From: a virus
Length of the DNA stretch: 38,884 bases
Virus genome (UHGV): UHGV-0130462
Direction: 5' to 3' (one strand)
Position 1 is the first letter of the stretch. Each line of letters begins with the position of its first letter. Made by a program: the position numbers and the translations under genes. Below the pieces are notes generated by a model that ran no database searches, was not told the DNA's origin, and was given only the letters and a program-made list of their open reading frames with translations. Positions 33,122 to 38,884 of this stretch are shown one piece after another.

Positions 33122-33141
33122 CTTTGTGTTCGGAGGTTCGC

Positions 33142-33852
33142 ATGGAACTTAGAGATCGAATTAATTACTTGCTAAAGGCTGAAAATCTAAAGCAAAAGGA
33201 CTTAGCTGAGAAACTAAATGCCAGTGCGCAAACAGTTAATAACTGGCTAAAAAGAAACTCAATTAGCAGGGAAGCAGCGCAACAGATTAGTGATATTTTT
33301 GGTTATTCACTTGACTGGTTACTGATTGGCAAAGGTGAGCCGAAAATAAAAAATATTGGACAATCAGAAATACCTGATGAAAACAAATTTATTCCTCTTC
33401 GAGTTTGGGATAGTCTAACACCTCTTGAGGCAGATGAAGTTGAGGTTCCTTTTTTGAAGGATATAGAATTTGCTTGTGGTGATGGATCGTTTACAGACAC
33501 TGATTACAACGGATTTAAACTAAGGTTTTCTAAAGCAACAATGCGGAGGATCGGAGCCAACAGTGACGGAGAAGGTGTGATTTGCTTCCCAGCCAGAGGG
33601 GATAGCATGGAGCCTGTTATATTTAATGGTACTACTGTTGCTGTAAACACTAGAGATAAGAAAATTGTTGATGGTAAAATTTATGCGATAAATCAAGGTG
33701 GGCTAAAAAGAGTGAAAATGCTTCATCAAACCACGCCTAAAACATTAACAATTCGTAGCTTCAATAAAATTGACTACCCAGACGAAGAAGTGCCAATAGA
33801 GGCAATAGAGATCATCGGTAGAGTTTTCTGGTGGTCTGTATTAGACGTCTAA
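33142..33852 (+). CDS. cI: CI-type prophage repressor (HTH plus LexA-like S24 autopeptidase domain)
   Basis: N-terminal HTH (LKQKDLAEKLNASAQTVNNWL) and C-terminal GDSMEP ... LKRVK catalytic Ser/Lys; GGAGG 6 nt upstream of ATG 33142. Confidence 0.9.
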   Translation: MELRDRINYLLKAENLKQKDLAEKLNASAQTVNNWLKRNSISREAAQQISDIFGYSLDWLLIGKGEPKIKNIGQSEIPDENKFIPLRVWDSLTPLEADEVEVPFLKDIEFACGDGSFTDTDYNGFKLRFSKATMRRIGANSDGEGVICFPARGDSMEPVIFNGTTVAVNTRDKKIVDGKIYAINQGGLKRVKMLHQTTPKTLTIRSFNKIDYPDEEVPIEAIEIIGRVFWWSVLDV

Positions 33853-34961: not shown

Positions 34962-35573
34962 TCATTTATTAAAATATCCAGTGAATTGCCTAACGCATTC
35001 TGAGTAATAATCGGGATTAATTATAAACTCATTGGTATGTCTCATACTCAAATGCTTTGACGAATCATGGAGAATGTCTTTATCCAACAGTGAGTTAATA
35101 ACAGGGTCATTTCTTTTCCCGCCTAGAAATTCCTTTCCAGTGTCAATGAACATGGCTAGGTAATCCTTTTCATCCTCAGAAAGGCTTGAAATAACAAATG
35201 ATATTTTGTGCTGATTATTACGCTTTATTGATTTTAACTTTACGGAATTAATTATACCAAAAGTTAATAAATATATTCTTTTTGTTATATCTGAAAGAAA
35301 GAAGCTAACAGGAATAATAAAAAGAACAGCATTGATATTATTTACCGAGCCAAAAATTGGCTTTGCGTTAAGAAAATCAAAGAATGATTCAGGTAAAAAT
35401 AACCACAAACTGACCAGATATAGCAACCACACCATAGTAAACCTCAGTGAAATTTGGTTTTTCAAATAGGCAATCACTGCCTCAATCCAATTCGGCATGG
35501 TTGATAATCTCTTATTCTGTAGGGGTAAGTGGATTATAGCCGATTTCTCGATGTAGGGGTACACGAGAACCAC
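34962..35573 (-). CDS. AT-rich membrane protein (two N-terminal TM helices plus soluble C-terminal domain), transcribed against the pL operon; superinfection-exclusion or abortive-infection candidate
   Basis: ORF track; hydrophobic segments FTMVWLLYLVSLWLFL and INAVLFIIPVSFFL; convergent with the upstream plus-strand gene, divergent from the next; strongly AT-rich. An alternative GTG start at 35564 has a GAGGTG site upstream. Confidence 0.6.
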   Translation of the reverse strand: MVLVYPYIEKSAIIHLPLQNKRLSTMPNWIEAVIAYLKNQISLRFTMVWLLYLVSLWLFLPESFFDFLNAKPIFGSVNNINAVLFIIPVSFFLSDITKRIYLLTFGIINSVKLKSIKRNNQHKISFVISSLSEDEKDYLAMFIDTGKEFLGGKRNDPVINSLLDKDILHDSSKHLSMRHTNEFIINPDYYSECVRQFTGYFNK

Positions 35574-35664
35574 CTCGCCTGACGTGGCTAAAAGCAGGCG
35601 CAGTTAACTAATTACAGTCCATTCTGTGGGCTGTGGTGAGTTGATTAATAGATAGGAGATAGAT

Positions 35665-35853
35665 ATGGATATTACGATTTTGTGCTCATCTGCTGATTGC
35701 AGTTCAGGGGTTGGAATAATGGAGGTAAAGGTCATCGATGTGGCTGATATTTCAATTCCAGAAGAATACCAAAATGAAGTGCTCAGAACCGCTATTAGTG
35801 AAGAAAATATAATTAAATACCTTAAAAGTCAGGGTTATTTAGTTACTTGTTAA
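35665..35853 (+). CDS. hypothetical small protein
   Basis: ORF track; AGGAG upstream. Confidence 0.4.
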   Translation: MDITILCSSADCSSGVGIMEVKVIDVADISIPEEYQNEVLRTAISEENIIKYLKSQGYLVTC

Positions 35854-35866
35854 TAACGGAGGGAGT

Positions 35867-36106
35867 ATGACAGATAAAACAGGTGGAGCGGCTTTTCCTG
35901 CGAGCGGGCATCCAAATATGCAATTTGTAGCTCAGGAAGGTGTGAATATGCGTGATTATCTAGCTGCTAAGGCTATGCAGGGCGATTTAGCTTCACAAAG
36001 CGCAGAACTCGGTCATTTTCCAAATGATGTAGATGATGAATGCTTAATAAAACGCGCTAAATTCTACTACCGCATGGCAGATGCAATGTTAAAAGCTAGG
36101 GGGTGA
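35867..36106 (+). CDS. hypothetical early-left protein
   Basis: ORF track; GGAGG upstream. Confidence 0.5.
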   Translation: MTDKTGGAAFPASGHPNMQFVAQEGVNMRDYLAAKAMQGDLASQSAELGHFPNDVDDECLIKRAKFYYRMADAMLKARG

Positions 36107-36107
36107 T

Positions 36108-36251
36108 ATGAACGAAAAATATAACGGAGGAGTTAAGCCTGATAATACAAAAGAAGCTAAAAAGCTCAATCGTGATTATCAAGTTAAACGCCTAATTGCT
36201 AAAGGCCACACAAAGAAGTTTGCCCGCCAACAAGTTAAACGCATTAAATAG
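36108..36251 (+). CDS. hypothetical small basic protein (47 aa)
   Basis: ATG 2 nt after the previous stop; K/R-rich; below the ORF-track cutoff. Confidence 0.35.
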   Translation: MNEKYNGGVKPDNTKEAKKLNRDYQVKRLIAKGHTKKFARQQVKRIK

Positions 36252-36325
36252 CAAGCAGTAACCCATCACTTAATCATTCATATCGCTATTAATAGTGATG
36301 AATACGCACATAAGGGATATAGGAA

Positions 36326-37267
36326 ATGGCAAATGAATTAGTCGTAATTGAACAAGCTACGGCGCTAGATTTGTTTACGGCACCAGAAAAAGTAAATCAG
36401 ATGCTAGAGCACATTAAATCTCTTGCAGAAGAAGAGCGTAAAGAACTCGACAGTGATTTCTCAGTAGCTAAAAACCGAAAGGCTTTTGCATCTCTGGCGT
36501 ACAAAGTTGCTCAAACAAAAATGTATATCGACAAGGAAGGTAAAGCGGTTGTCGATAAGTTAAAAGAGCTACCCAAAAAAGTTGATGCTAATCGCAAGAT
36601 ATTTCGTGATGAACTAGATGCATTAAGCACAGATATTCGCAAGCCACTAACAGAGTGGGAAGCACAAGAAAAAGCTCGCGAAGAAGCTGAGGCGCTTAAG
36701 AAGCAAATCGAAGTTGATCACGAAGAAGCTCTGCAAATGAACGAGTTGTTTGATTTGCGCAAAGCCGAAGAGGAACGCAAACGCATTGCTCGTGAAGAAG
36801 AAATGAAGCGACAAGCTGCGGAACAGGCAAGACTTGAAGCTGAGCGCAAAGCACAGCAAGAAATTGAAGCAGCAGCACGGCGCGAACGTGAAGCAAAAGA
36901 AGCTGCCGAACGAGCAGAGCGCGAGAAGCAGGAAGCTATTCAACGTGCAGAGCAAGCGGCAAAAGAAGCCAAGGAAAAGGCAGAACGTGATGCTAAAGAA
37001 GCTCAGGAACGAGCAGAGCGCGAGAAGCAATTAGCTATCGAAGCTGAACGCAAGAAAGTACAGGAAGCAAAACAAGCGCGATTAGCAGAAGAAGAACGTA
37101 AGCGCCAGGAAGAAGCTAAACGTCAGGCTGATAAGGAGCATCGTCGCAAGTATAACCAAGAAACTTTACAGGCATTAGTAAGTAACGGATTTGATGAAAA
37201 ATTAGCGACTGAATTTATTAAGTTAGTTGCTAGTAATAAAATCCCCCACATGACAATGAACTACTAA
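36326..37267 (+). CDS. protein with a long E/R/K/A-rich charged helical region (coiled-coil or single alpha-helix) after a roughly 110-aa N-terminal domain
   Basis: ORF track; low-complexity ...REEAEALKKQ...AERAEREKQ... repeats; located just upstream of the Sak4-like ATPase. Confidence 0.6.
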   Translation: MANELVVIEQATALDLFTAPEKVNQMLEHIKSLAEEERKELDSDFSVAKNRKAFASLAYKVAQTKMYIDKEGKAVVDKLKELPKKVDANRKIFRDELDALSTDIRKPLTEWEAQEKAREEAEALKKQIEVDHEEALQMNELFDLRKAEEERKRIAREEEMKRQAAEQARLEAERKAQQEIEAAARREREAKEAAERAEREKQEAIQRAEQAAKEAKEKAERDAKEAQERAEREKQLAIEAERKKVQEAKQARLAEEERKRQEEAKRQADKEHRRKYNQETLQALVSNGFDEKLATEFIKLVASNKIPHMTMNY

Positions 37268-37322
37268 TACCCACCGCACCAACACCAGATAACCACCCTA
37301 TCGCTCACCTAGCGAGGTAACA

Positions 37323-37499
37323 ATGAAAACTAACTATTACAGCGCTATGCGTGATTGCATGGCGGTGCGTATCACTACGCCTTTTTTACAACTCGCACGT
37401 CAAGCGGCAAGGATAGCCGTCTCAACTAATAACAAGGATGTCTGGCGGTTGGCGAGTCAACTACAGAAGATGGCTTACGGGAGGAAAGTATGTCACTGA
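37323..37499 (+). CDS. hypothetical small protein
   Basis: ATG 37323 after the previous stop; overlaps the next ORF by a few nt; below the ORF-track cutoff. Confidence 0.3.
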   Translation: MKTNYYSAMRDCMAVRITTPFLQLARQAARIAVSTNNKDVWRLASQLQKMAYGRKVCH

Positions 37500-37765
37500 C
37501 TATACGTTACACCTATGCAGATATGACCAGTAGAAACCGAAATAACGGCACGGAAATAGCCTTTCAGAATCTTAACGATGTCCGCATTGAAACAGAATCA
37601 TTCAGGGAACTTACTCAATATTACCAACCTGAGCCATCAGAAGTCGTTGATTACATCATTAATCAGTATGACGCAAAGTCACTCGCAGCAGCTATTCATC
37701 TCTCAGGACGAGGGGAAGTAGTCGCAAAGATACTCAATGAGTTGTATTTCAGGAGGGTTGCGTGA
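37490..37765 (+). CDS. hypothetical protein
   Basis: ORF track. Confidence 0.45.
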   Translation: MSLTIRYTYADMTSRNRNNGTEIAFQNLNDVRIETESFRELTQYYQPEPSEVVDYIINQYDAKSLAAAIHLSGRGEVVAKILNELYFRRVA

Positions 37766-37910
37766 CAAATCATCAACAATGGTTGGAAGAATTACGCAGG
37801 AAGCGTAAAGAATCGCAGGAACGCGAACACGATGAATTTATGTATCAAACGGAAGTGTTAGGACGACAAGGATTGTCTATGCCTCTCAAGGACTTTTCAG
37901 GAGATTTTCA

Positions 37911-38231
37911 ATGAACGTTTCTAACTCATACCCTACCGATAAATACCCCCAATTAACATCACCGTCATTAGCAAAAAACAGAGAGGAAGCTCTGGCTCAA
38001 GCTATTGCAATGATTGAGGGATGTTTGCCAAATACGAGTGCGCCAGACAGGGAAAAACGATTAGCAATGGAACTGCTACACATGAACTTGGACGCATCGA
38101 AAAATCACCCTCCTCTACCTGCTCATATTCAGGCATTACGTGATGCGGAAAGGAATTCTGCACCGAGTAATAAGTTTGAAGTCGATTACTACGGAAGCGA
38201 TCGACGTCAAGGTCAATACTTAGGAGATTAG
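37911..38231 (+). CDS. hypothetical protein
   Basis: ORF track. Confidence 0.5.
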   Translation: MNVSNSYPTDKYPQLTSPSLAKNREEALAQAIAMIEGCLPNTSAPDREKRLAMELLHMNLDASKNHPPLPAHIQALRDAERNSAPSNKFEVDYYGSDRRQGQYLGD

Positions 38232-38884
38232 TATGAAATTCGCCAAGGCAATGCGAAAAAAAGCAAAATTAAGGCTCGCTTTAACAGGGCCTAGTGGCTC
38301 AGGTAAAACCTATGGAGCACTGGAAATAGCCAAAGGACTTGGCGGAAAAACGGCATTGATTGATACGGAAAAAGGAAGTGCTTCTCTTTACTCTGACCGT
38401 TTTAATTTTGACGTATTGGAGTTAGATCCACCATTCACACCAGAGCGATTTATTGAAGCTATCGGGGTTGCGCAGGAAGCTGGCTACGATAATTTGATAA
38501 TCGACAGTATTACTCACGAATGGAGTGGAACAGGCGGATGTCTAGAATTACTCGATGTGTTAGCAAAAGCCAAGTATCGAGGCAATACGTGGTCAGCATG
38601 GAGCGAAATAACACCACGTCACAATGCATTTCTCGACGCGATACTACGGTCTGACCTGCATATTATCGCAACGATGAGAAGTAAAACGGAAACTGCTCAG
38701 GTCGATAAAGGCAATGGTAAGAAAGGCGTAGATAAACTTGGCATGAAATCAGAGCAGCGTGACGGGGTTGAGTATGAGTTTACGACTGTACTAGACCTAA
38801 ATCACGAAACTCACACGGCAATGGCAAGCAAGGATAGAACAGGATTGTTCAGCAACGCCGAAGTTACTCAGTTAAATGAATTAG
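38232..38884 (+). CDS. Sak4-like RecA-fold ATPase (AAA_24 family), 3'-truncated by the window edge
   Basis: Walker A LTGPSGSGKTYGA near the N-terminus, LIIDS Walker B-like segment; GGAGA upstream of ATG 38232; open to the window end. Confidence 0.65.

Follow-up and report, generated by a model that had tools for sequence, protein, structure and literature searches.

The right-hand part of the window, by which we mean the whole 38,884-nt stretch of viral DNA analyzed (UHGV-0130462), carries what we consider, with a probability of about 0.7, to be the homologous-recombination (Rec) module in the early-left operon of a P22-like temperate Proteus/Providencia phage, cut by the point at which the genome was linearized. 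The module, whose features all lie on the plus strand, would begin with a 313-aa protein of PHROG 1376, continue through three small ORFs and a 106-aa ORF to a Sak4-like AAA_24 ATPase, and extend across approximately 650 nt outside the window to a canonical SSB gene, a 53-aa ORF, and on to Dam, xis, and int. As far as sequence comparison can carry such assignments, the gene identities, their contiguity by synteny, and the placement of the ATPase in the exact Erf slot of a near-identical phage are established. The cluster itself is ordinary, a textbook mosaic exchange of phage recombinases, families of which are known to replace one another in the same gene context (PMC2896510); the 313-aa family within it is a modestly interesting unknown. 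An Rfam scan of the window returned no families.

Architecture of the 313-aa protein

The first gene of the module (36326..37267) encodes the 313-aa charged-helix protein, for which the first-pass annotation had proposed a profile search; this search placed it in PHROG 1376 (E 1.1e-67) by a full-length match, residues 2-313 aligning to positions 4-362 of the phrog_1376 profile. Three parts are common to 49 aligned members: an N-terminal domain, a charged helix of variable length, and a C-terminal mini-domain. The N-terminal conserved helical domain (aa 1-112; 36326..36661), with predicted helices at residues 10-18, 20-40, and 48 onward (pLDDT ~82-88), contains R51, K65, G72, K73, K80, R90, and P107, which are invariant across these 49 diverse members. 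Residues 113-270 (36662..37135) form a putative ER/K-type single alpha-helix spacer, judged from the model and from a composition of 85% E/K/R/A/Q and 11% hydrophobic residues with no heptad register and 46 i/i+4 opposite-charge pairs; in the AlphaFold2 model, residues 48 to 286 make up what is essentially a single helix. Lengths across the family span 197 to 436 aa, the helix being short in the members of 209 and 226 aa. The C-terminal mini-domain (aa 271-313; 37136..37264) has a predicted helix at 291-302 (pLDDT 83-95) and ends in IPHMTMNY, the terminal Tyr being conserved in 111 of 148 family representatives. HMMs of the N- and C-terminal domains matched 110 and 108 ORFs, respectively, in the same ORF set.

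No Pfam, NCBIfam, PDB sequence, or PADLOC match was found for the protein, its profile, or the 49 relatives. With the model as query, Foldseek retrieved nothing from PDB and BFVD beyond unnamed family members and nonspecific helical bundles, and a protein-word search with the N-terminal domain returned fragments only. A candidate hairpin in the intergenic region upstream of the gene folds no better than shuffled sequences.

Distribution and gene context of PHROG 1376

Against representatives of clusters drawn at 50% identity, the PHROG 1376 profile gave 5365 matches; at E ≤ 1e-10 there were 4424, a family of approximately 4,400 clusters. Every IMG/VR locus with enough downstream sequence (67/67) was followed on the same strand by a recombination module, and a recognized annealase, starting 67-2050 nt downstream, was present in 58 of the 67. 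The modules in question are of RecT, Erf, Rad52-like, Bet, or Sak4 type. The family directly adjoins recombination modules in Pseudomonas D3 and JBD44, Sinorhizobium phiLM21, a Vibrio phage, and 'Plectonema' Lbo240; in Klebsiella Mulock, its member immediately precedes gam-bet-exo, and in Iodobacter PhiPLPE, it is placed between RecT and RdgC. Gam-like genes (in seven loci, 8 nt downstream) and Abc2 are also found together with the family. Thus, the position upstream of a Sak4-like gene that the first-pass annotation had pointed out is real, but it is not specific to Sak4, the family being linked to recombination modules generally. The protein is also dispensable, since only 14 of 57 loci bearing the ATPase contain it and 43 do not. 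A matching of the C-terminal mini-domain to annealase type was rejected, as one and the same variant accompanies RecT, Erf, AAA_24, and RecT2. The association between PHROG 1376 and these modules could largely reflect conserved lambdoid early-left gene order. DUF1351 may be an analogue. A survey of 246 lambdoid Rec modules lists no such component (PMC12315714).

Possible roles of the 313-aa protein

We tentatively read the 313-aa protein as an optional accessory of the Rec module, a tether or spacer that acts independently of annealase type. The ER/K helix would hold the conserved basic helical N-terminal domain and the small C-terminal domain 20-35 nm apart, and the protein would connect a recombination intermediate, either SSB/ssDNA or DNA ends, with a shared partner that probably belongs to the host. 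The broader proposal that PHROG 1376 as a whole is a widespread, previously unrecognized Rec-module accessory, a tether serving any annealase (RecT, Bet, Erf, Rad52-like, or Sak4), is a shade less likely again; the partner shared by all would presumably be ssDNA covered by SSB, DNA ends, or a protein of the host replisome or recombination machinery. Thousands of uncharacterized PHROG 1376 proteins precede recombination modules in Proteobacterial phages, which provides a specific candidate for an accessory function that has been missing.

It is somewhat unlikely, though a serious competitor, that the protein is unconnected with recombination and is instead an early-left host-takeover, anti-defense, or exclusion protein kept in place by lambdoid gene order. 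The slot that the family occupies in Sf101 is filled in P22 by the unrelated gene 17 (growth on a Fels-2 lysogen), the family is missing from 75% of loci with the same ATPase and does not co-vary with annealase type, and the region is rich in morons such as the SieB-like gene at 34962..35573. Speaking for recombination are the persistence of the adjacency beyond enterobacterial lambdoids, in phages of Sinorhizobium, Iodobacter, Vibrio, and Pseudomonas (with one placement between RecT and RdgC), the presence of a downstream Rec module at all sampled loci, and the lack of any match in PADLOC. Homology of PHROG 1376 to P22 gp17, its counterpart in the same slot, was considered and rejected.

An activity as a DNA-end protector or nuclease (RecBCD) inhibitor resembling lambda Gam, Mu Gam, or Sipho_Gp157 is improbable. 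The protein shares its relative position with lambda gam and with Sfi21 orf157, which lies upstream of a Sak4-like gene, and its N-terminal domain has conserved basic residues, but the family occurs alongside Gam-like genes (the seven loci above and Mulock) and Abc2, for which reason the idea of a Gam replacement was rejected. Moreover, none of the Pfam matches of the 49 members is a Gam family, and the predicted fold is all-alpha and extended, without a Ku-like core. Homology to Sipho_Gp157 was rejected at the sensitivity used (hhalign probability 0.2%), and a relationship to Rac RecE (a 'RecE-2') was dropped after no match was obtained. Sfi21 orf157, a Sipho_Gp157 member, is annotated as 'Mu Gam-like'.

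Small ORFs upstream of the ATPase gene

Between the 313-aa protein and the ATPase gene lie three small overlapping ORFs of 58, 91, and 50 aa (37323..37914), which are conserved in relatives, the same ORFs being found in phage MS2 LVA; only that of 58 aa matches a PHROG (phrog_2180). The 106-aa ORF that follows (37911..38231), directly upstream of the ATPase gene, matches neither PHROG nor Pfam and is a weak candidate for an Abc2-like accessory; compared with P22/HK620 Abc2, BLASTP was negative and hhalign gave a probability of 35% (E 4e-4, 45 columns). It was found upstream of Erf or Sak4-type genes, mostly abutting them, in nine loci, and never alongside Abc2 or Gam-like genes in the census.

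The ATPase in the Erf slot

The ATPase gene (38233..>38884) opens with an ATG at 38233 and runs without a stop through 38884, where the window edge cuts it, giving the N-terminal 217 codons of a P-loop protein of phrog_1366. The translation contains a Walker A motif, GPSGSGKT, at aa 19-26 and NLIIDS, read as Walker B, at aa 87-92. Pfam AAA_24 (PF13479) was matched at 103.7 bits (cut-off 27), and among PHROGs the best match was to phrog_1366 (8.5e-92), accompanied by one to phrog_124, 'Sak4-like', at about 6e-12 to 7e-12. The earlier identification of a Sak4-like ATPase running off the right edge is therefore supported at the level of AAA_24 and phrog_124. The protein has some similarity to Sfi21 orf233 (E 3e-7). 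Its core was modeled by AlphaFold with low confidence (pLDDT 58), and a Foldseek search of PDB with this low-confidence core returned RecA chains most commonly, as weak matches (E 1e-3 to 1e-2, TM ~0.25).

Homologues identical over the 217 aa are 262-294 aa long and, where full-length, 290-294 aa; one of 294 aa (P0173) is followed by an SSB gene in a Proteus mirabilis prophage. The Sak4 family has been described as 'core-only' RecA proteins of fewer than 290 aa (Lopes et al. 2010, PMC2896510). The ATPase is not of this kind, its 290-294-aa homologues having a C-terminal helical domain that is confidently modeled and that is of the Erf C-terminal type, as opposed to that of RecA or DnaB. An HMM trained exclusively on the C-terminal domains of ERF, Rad52, and RecT proteins, with no ATPase as input, matched P0173 at aa 232-287 (E 1.6e-11), a part absent from the window, as well as 90 ATPase ORFs and P22 Erf at aa 146-205 (E 4e-21). 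The HMM did not match lambda-type Bet or Rac RecT, and the domain had no match in PDB. [quoted passage not shown]

In an IMG/VR relative (L008), flanks 98-99.7% identical to those of the window enclose an Erf gene instead of the ATPase, the breakpoint coinciding with the gene start, and phage MS2 LVA shows the same swap, with Erf between the same flanks. Such a clean natural swap, in which identical flanks hold either Erf or a Sak4-like ATPase, could help in selecting proteins for recombineering in Proteus and Providencia.

An SSB gene directly follows the ATPase gene in 64 of 76 related loci (84%), and likewise in the relative L006; for the window, this adjacency is inferred across the gap. 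The first-pass statement that Sak4 usually partners with SSB holds for these loci, with the caveat that the SSB of the characterized HK620 Sak4 is of the DUF669 type and not a canonical one. We infer that the ATPase is the single-strand annealing recombinase of the phage, with a RecA-like core and, in full-length homologues, the additional C-terminal domain. It would probably work on ssDNA covered by the adjacent SSB, as does HK620 Sak4, the annealing activity of Sak4 being stimulated by the neighboring SSB through the C-terminal tail of the latter (PMC5928155).

There is a small chance that the protein is some other AAA_24-type NTPase, for instance a replication or packaging helper, and not a recombinase: phrog_1366 is annotated as 'unknown function', the TIGR01618 score is far under the cut-off, and pairwise similarity to HK620 Sak4 was not detected. 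Weighing against this are its occupation of the exact position of Erf in near-identical genomes, the C-terminal domain held in common with ERF, Rad52, and RecT annealases, the linkage to SSB in 84% of loci, a match to phrog_124 that is stronger than that of HK620 Sak4 itself (1.9e-5), and the absence of a second annealase from the module in the window.

The window ends and the circular map

While the right edge cuts the ATPase gene, the left edge opens inside the C-terminus of an SSB gene, of which the last 32 codons and the stop are present (3..101). Frame 3 reads ASSNQAPQSEPPQDWDDQEIPFYPPYPFNQRI and stops at 99-101, and the DNA is homologous to the 3′ ends of the SSB genes of phage Brookers, phage MS2 LVA, and the P. 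mirabilis prophage. The SSBs of MS2 LVA, L006, and L008 match the SSB models TIGR00621/PF00436, and the complete 175-aa SSB of L008 bears an identical extended tail; on these homologies, what the left edge carries is the 3′ part of a canonical SSB gene. The first-pass annotation was accordingly right in recognizing an SSB C-terminus at this edge. Its acidic motif, DWDDQEIPF, is not terminal, being followed by ten residues (YPPYPFNQRI), since the TAA stop codon of the Brookers gene corresponds to TAC in the window. The SSB of the window thus departs from the pattern of an acidic tip with a free Phe carboxylate at the extreme C-terminus. A free IPF terminus is the interaction tip in HK620 and E. 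coli, and its absence here speaks against the SSB-tail mechanism.

The window is best described as a circular-type permutation whose opening falls within the recombination module and which lacks approximately 650 nt, a description supported by the ATPase-SSB synteny and by an int gene whose neighbors are phage and not host genes. Adding the outstanding 233 nt of the ATPase gene to 427 nt of the SSB gene and subtracting an 11-nt overlap gives ~649 nt, and a further relative gives 636 nt, both within the 0.5-0.7 kb suggested when the ends were first proposed to be contiguous. Since the same flanks enclose either the ATPase or Erf in near-identical relatives, the ends should lie ~650 nt apart on a circular map; among relatives sharing either flank, the flanks are 636-1037 nt apart with solely a recombinase and an SSB between them. 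The window plus 650 nt amounts to ~39.5 kb, and the relatives measure 39.2-40.2 kb. A further synteny anchor for joining the ends is the 53-aa ORF at 104..265, the same protein following the SSB in Brookers and MS2 LVA. An exact search of IMG/VR with the right-end sequence found no contig that closes the gap.

Host DNA at either end, or a left-edge ORF in a different frame, had been put forward as evidence that would count against contiguity. Host DNA was found at neither end: the genes that come after int are a Wzy-like gene and that of the tailspike, the int-to-tailspike junction being intact, whereas in an integrated relative int abuts the host gene folD. The frame has no bearing on the question, since different genes lie at the two edges. 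That the ends are not neighbors, with the window a fragment of a larger element or with extra genes between ATPase and SSB, is very improbable: the junction itself lies outside the window and 12 of the 76 related ATPase genes have no SSB directly after them, but the recombinase-plus-SSB spacing holds in all flank-sharing relatives, the total length fits theirs, and host genes are absent from a window with an intact int-to-tailspike junction.

Comparison with known systems

The long E/K/A-rich helix of the 313-aa family resembles domain II of TolA; its conserved N- and C-terminal domains, unlike the helix, are unrelated to TolA, and its context is a phage Rec module. Pfam scans (E ≤ 0.1) of the protein and the 49 relatives returned no TolA family, and the TolA name that some databases give to family members is a low-complexity artefact. 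Sipho_Gp157 (PF05565) of Streptococcus phages offers a parallel in placement, as it too is a helical protein just upstream of an AAA_24 recombinase, whereas it is half the size of the 313-aa protein, has no ER/K spacer, and shows no detectable homology.

The module occupies the same genomic slot as the P22 Rec module (erf, arf, abc1, abc2), as the Erf genes between the flanks in L008 and MS2 LVA illustrate. It differs in that P22 Erf is a Rad52-like ring and the window protein a P-loop ATPase, and in having no recognizable Abc1, Abc2, or Arf, for which the 106-aa ORF supplies only a weak Abc2 candidate.

The closest characterized system is Sak4-SSB of HK620 (Hutinet et al. 2018, PMC5928155), which likewise places a P-loop ATPase (RecA-core type, putatively so in the window) in a P22-like Rec slot with an SSB directly after it and has no phage exonuclease in the module, both ATPases matching phrog_124. 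The two belong to different subfamilies (phrog_1366 and, in HK620, phrog_2872), and a BLASTP comparison was not significant, with nothing in common beyond Walker A. Their SSB partners also differ, the HK620 protein being of the DUF669 type and that on the window side a canonical OB-fold SSB (PF00436) whose IPF is not terminal. Finally, the homologues of the window ATPase measure 290-294 aa and HK620 Sak4 226 aa, a greater length that is accounted for by the extra Erf-type C-terminal domain.

Results

Genome layout

The window is a temperate phage genome of the P22-like (Lederbergvirus-like) type. Proteus and Providencia phages and 'Salmonella phage MS2 LVA' are its nearest relatives in the databases, and its nearest protein homologues are from Proteus mirabilis, Providencia, and Morganella. 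The integrase gene (int; 2817..3992, minus strand) abuts host folD in an integrated relative, and no host DNA was found at either end of the window. Between int/attP and the tailspike gene (5719..8037, minus strand) lies a Wzy_C-type O-antigen polymerase-like gene of 407 aa (4420..5643, minus strand), which matched Pfam Wzy_C (O-antigen ligase/polymerase; 33.1 bits, cut-off 31.7), found no match in PHROG, and is likely a serotype-conversion gene. Structural genes and then an O-like replication gene lie beyond the tailspike, a CI-type repressor is encoded at 33124..33852, and the rightward genes of the homologous-recombination (Rec) module come after a SieB-like (SieB/Esc-like superinfection-exclusion) gene at 34962..35573 on the minus strand.

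Probable contiguity of the window's ends and recombinase replacement

The first-pass annotation had read the two ends as possible neighbours on a circular map, and the features on which it relied are all present: the 313-aa charged-helix ORF (36326..37267, plus strand), the open-ended ATPase ORF (38233..38884, 217 codons), and a left-edge SSB-like frame (3..101) ending in ...DWDDQEIPFYPPYPFNQRI*. The left-edge DNA aligns to the 3' ends of SSB genes in phage Brookers, MS2 LVA, and a P. mirabilis prophage, and in the first two of these the counterpart of the 53-aa gene (window 104..265) comes after SSB. In the P. mirabilis prophage L006, a 106-aa ORF is followed by the ATPase (6001-6885) and SSB (6875-7414), and a canonical SSB gene lies directly 3' of the ATPase in 64 of the 76 IMG/VR loci that have the window's ATPase type and enough downstream sequence, in line with the report that ssb neighbours ~80% of sak4 genes (PMC5928155). 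Homologues identical across the window's 217 residues are 262-294 aa long (full-length P0173, 294 aa). The missing stretch, estimated earlier at 0.5-0.7 kb, comes to ~649 nt from the geometry of L006 and the IMG/VR relative L008 (233 + 427 - 11) and to 636 nt from a third contig, L105, which implies a genome of ~39.5 kb, matching relatives of 39.2-40.2 kb. Synteny, gap size, and genome length thus support circular contiguity, with a putative junction spanning the gap. Another contig with the 313-aa gene and the ATPase, L104 / L026 (IMGVR_UViG_2905361683_000005), also ends within the ATPase gene (aa 288), so assemblies or prophage calls recurrently break off in the ATPase-SSB region.

L008 is 98.4% identical to the window over 35001-38236 and 99.7% over 1-879, and between those flanks (L008 6911-7949) it carries Erf and SSB rather than ATPase and SSB, as does MS2 LVA. 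On the left, the breakpoint coincides exactly with the recombinase start codon (window 38233-38236), and the pair represents a clean natural recombinase swap; substitution between recombinase families has been described before (PMC2896510). This replacement of Erf between identical flanks is the strongest functional evidence for the ATPase.

The ATPase and its C-terminal domain

The ATPase matched Pfam AAA_24 (103.7 bits, cut-off 27), phrog_1366 (8.5e-92, profile positions 3-218 of 307), phrog_124 'Sak4-like ssDNA annealing protein' (7e-12), and Sfi21 orf233 (E 3e-7). BLASTP against HK620 Sak4 returned nothing common beyond the Walker A motif; phrog_124 is matched by both proteins, more strongly by the ATPase, which is probably a distant relative of characterised Sak4 proteins. 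Its AlphaFold core is of low confidence (mean pLDDT 58), and in Foldseek searches with that model RecA chains were the commonest protein by far, with weak matches. The ~75 residues that fall outside the window are modelled as a confident helical domain (pLDDT 83-95).

This C-terminal domain is homologous to that of P22 Erf (L005 3255-3872) and also to those of Rad52-like and some RecT annealases in sister phages. An HMM built from ERF, Rad52, and RecT C-termini alone matched P0173 at aa 232-287 (E 1.6e-11) and 90 ATPase ORFs (1e-17 to 9e-7), and an HMM of all eighteen aligned C-termini (A4) matched P22 Erf residues 146-205 (4e-21). The domain, ~55-60 aa long and found in many IMG/VR loci, is common to four recombinase cores (ERF, Rad52-like, some RecT, and the AAA_24 ATPase) and is probably a portable partner-binding domain. 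HMM search did not detect it in HK620 Sak4, lambda-type Bet, or Rac RecT, and Pfam and PDB sequence searches gave no match.

SSB tail extensions

The IPF motif, previously taken as the SSB C-terminus, is not terminal: the window reads TAC where Brookers has TAA right after IPF, which adds ten codons (YPPYPFNQRI). The complete 175-aa SSB of L008 bears an identical tail, which makes a sequencing error an unlikely source of the read-through. Among the SSBs compared (window 3..101; L006 6875-7414; L002 4325-4864; those in L008-L167), ~1/5 to 1/3 lack the DDDIPF end, and most of these bear a conserved 15-aa extension, APIGLPYPRHAIYVI-like, of which the tail in the window and L008 is a shorter derivative. 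Such an extension would bury the Phe carboxylate, the usual binding point of SSB partners; stimulation of HK620 Sak4 needs the SSB C-terminal hexapeptide (PMC5928155).

The 313-aa and 106-aa proteins

The charged-helix protein, to which the first-pass annotation gave no role, aligns full-length with phrog_1376; Pfam, NCBIfam, PADLOC, and PDB searches found no match, and neither did Pfam, meaningfully, for any of 49 diverse family members. Its N-terminal profile recovered 5365 cluster representatives (50% identity), and 4424 of these had E<=1e-10. Members, 197-436 aa long, combine a conserved helical N-terminal domain of ~112 aa (invariant R51, K65, G72, K73, K80, R90, and P107), a charged helix of variable length, and a C-terminal mini-domain of ~43 aa, usually with Tyr last. 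The central 158 residues (85% E/K/R/A/Q, 11% hydrophobic) lack a heptad register but contain many i/i+4 opposite-charge pairs, form a continuous helix in the predicted model, and are read as a putative ER/K single alpha-helix rather than a coiled coil. The name 'TolA', given to family members in some databases, is a low-complexity artefact, and no homology to P22 gp17, Sipho_Gp157, or Rac RecE was detectable. Just 5' of the gene, a 62-nt intergenic stretch (36254..36315) is 96.8% identical to an L006 stretch with different flanking genes and may be a mosaic boundary or regulatory site; its hairpin folds no better than shuffled sequences.

Among 67 IMG/VR loci with the family and no less than 2.5 kb of downstream sequence, a recognised annealase, confirmed by Pfam, starts on the same strand 67-2050 nt downstream in 58: RecT (30), a second RecT cluster (5), Erf (9), Rad52-like (7), or the window's AAA_24 type (7). 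Some of the other nine carry ExoVIII and a 164-193-aa protein that bears a weak Erf-type C-terminal domain, or HK620-type Sak4 and a DUF669-like SSB; L079 has a YqaJ-type exonuclease but no recognised annealase, and L052 other genes. The pattern extends to annotated phages far beyond enterobacterial lambdoids: the family precedes ERF and YqaJ exonuclease in Pseudomonas D3 and JBD44, ERF, YqaJ, and NinB in Sinorhizobium phiLM21, ExoVIII, a hypothetical protein, and an OB-fold protein in a Vibrio phage, bet and exo in 'Plectonema' Lbo240, and several genes and an ATPase in Hafnia Meifeng. It lies between kil and GamL-Bet-Exo in Klebsiella Mulock and between RecE-RecT and RdgC in Iodobacter PhiPLPE.

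In nine loci the 106-aa ORF (37911..38231) precedes an Erf or Sak4-type gene, mostly abutting it, and in the locus census it never occurs with Abc2 or Gam-like genes. Profile comparison with Abc2 was borderline (probability 35%, E 4e-4), and the ORF may be an analogue that modulates RecBCD, in a module without its own nuclease.

Discussion

We infer with fair confidence that the ATPase is the module's annealase, which, by analogy with HK620 Sak4, would act on ssDNA coated by the neighbouring SSB. For the 313-aa protein we tentatively favour (probability about 0.35) an optional accessory independent of annealase type; the spacing of its two small domains by a rigid helix suggests a tether between a recombination intermediate and a common partner. 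C-terminal variants of the family do not follow annealase type, and the converse association fails, the family being present in only 14 of 57 loci with the window-type ATPase and missing from the P. mirabilis prophage L006. The main rival, an unrelated early-operon host-takeover protein, has to be weighed with this patchy presence as well as with the strict Rec-module association, and we consider it only slightly less probable than the accessory reading. A Gam-like role is improbable in a family whose members are found alongside Gam-like and Abc2 genes.

The PHROG 1376 family does not appear in a 2025 survey of lambdoid Rec modules (PMC12315714). The present analysis adds how large this unstudied family is and how strictly it associates with Rec modules, along with the common Erf-type C-terminal domain and the SSB tail extensions that recur in these modules. 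The first-pass interpretation is largely borne out, but the module itself is of a known kind and an ordinary example of it. As in P22, a SieB/Esc-like gene is carried on the other strand within the early-left region. No exonuclease was seen among the genes examined, and the Rec module follows the nuclease-less P22/HK620 style.
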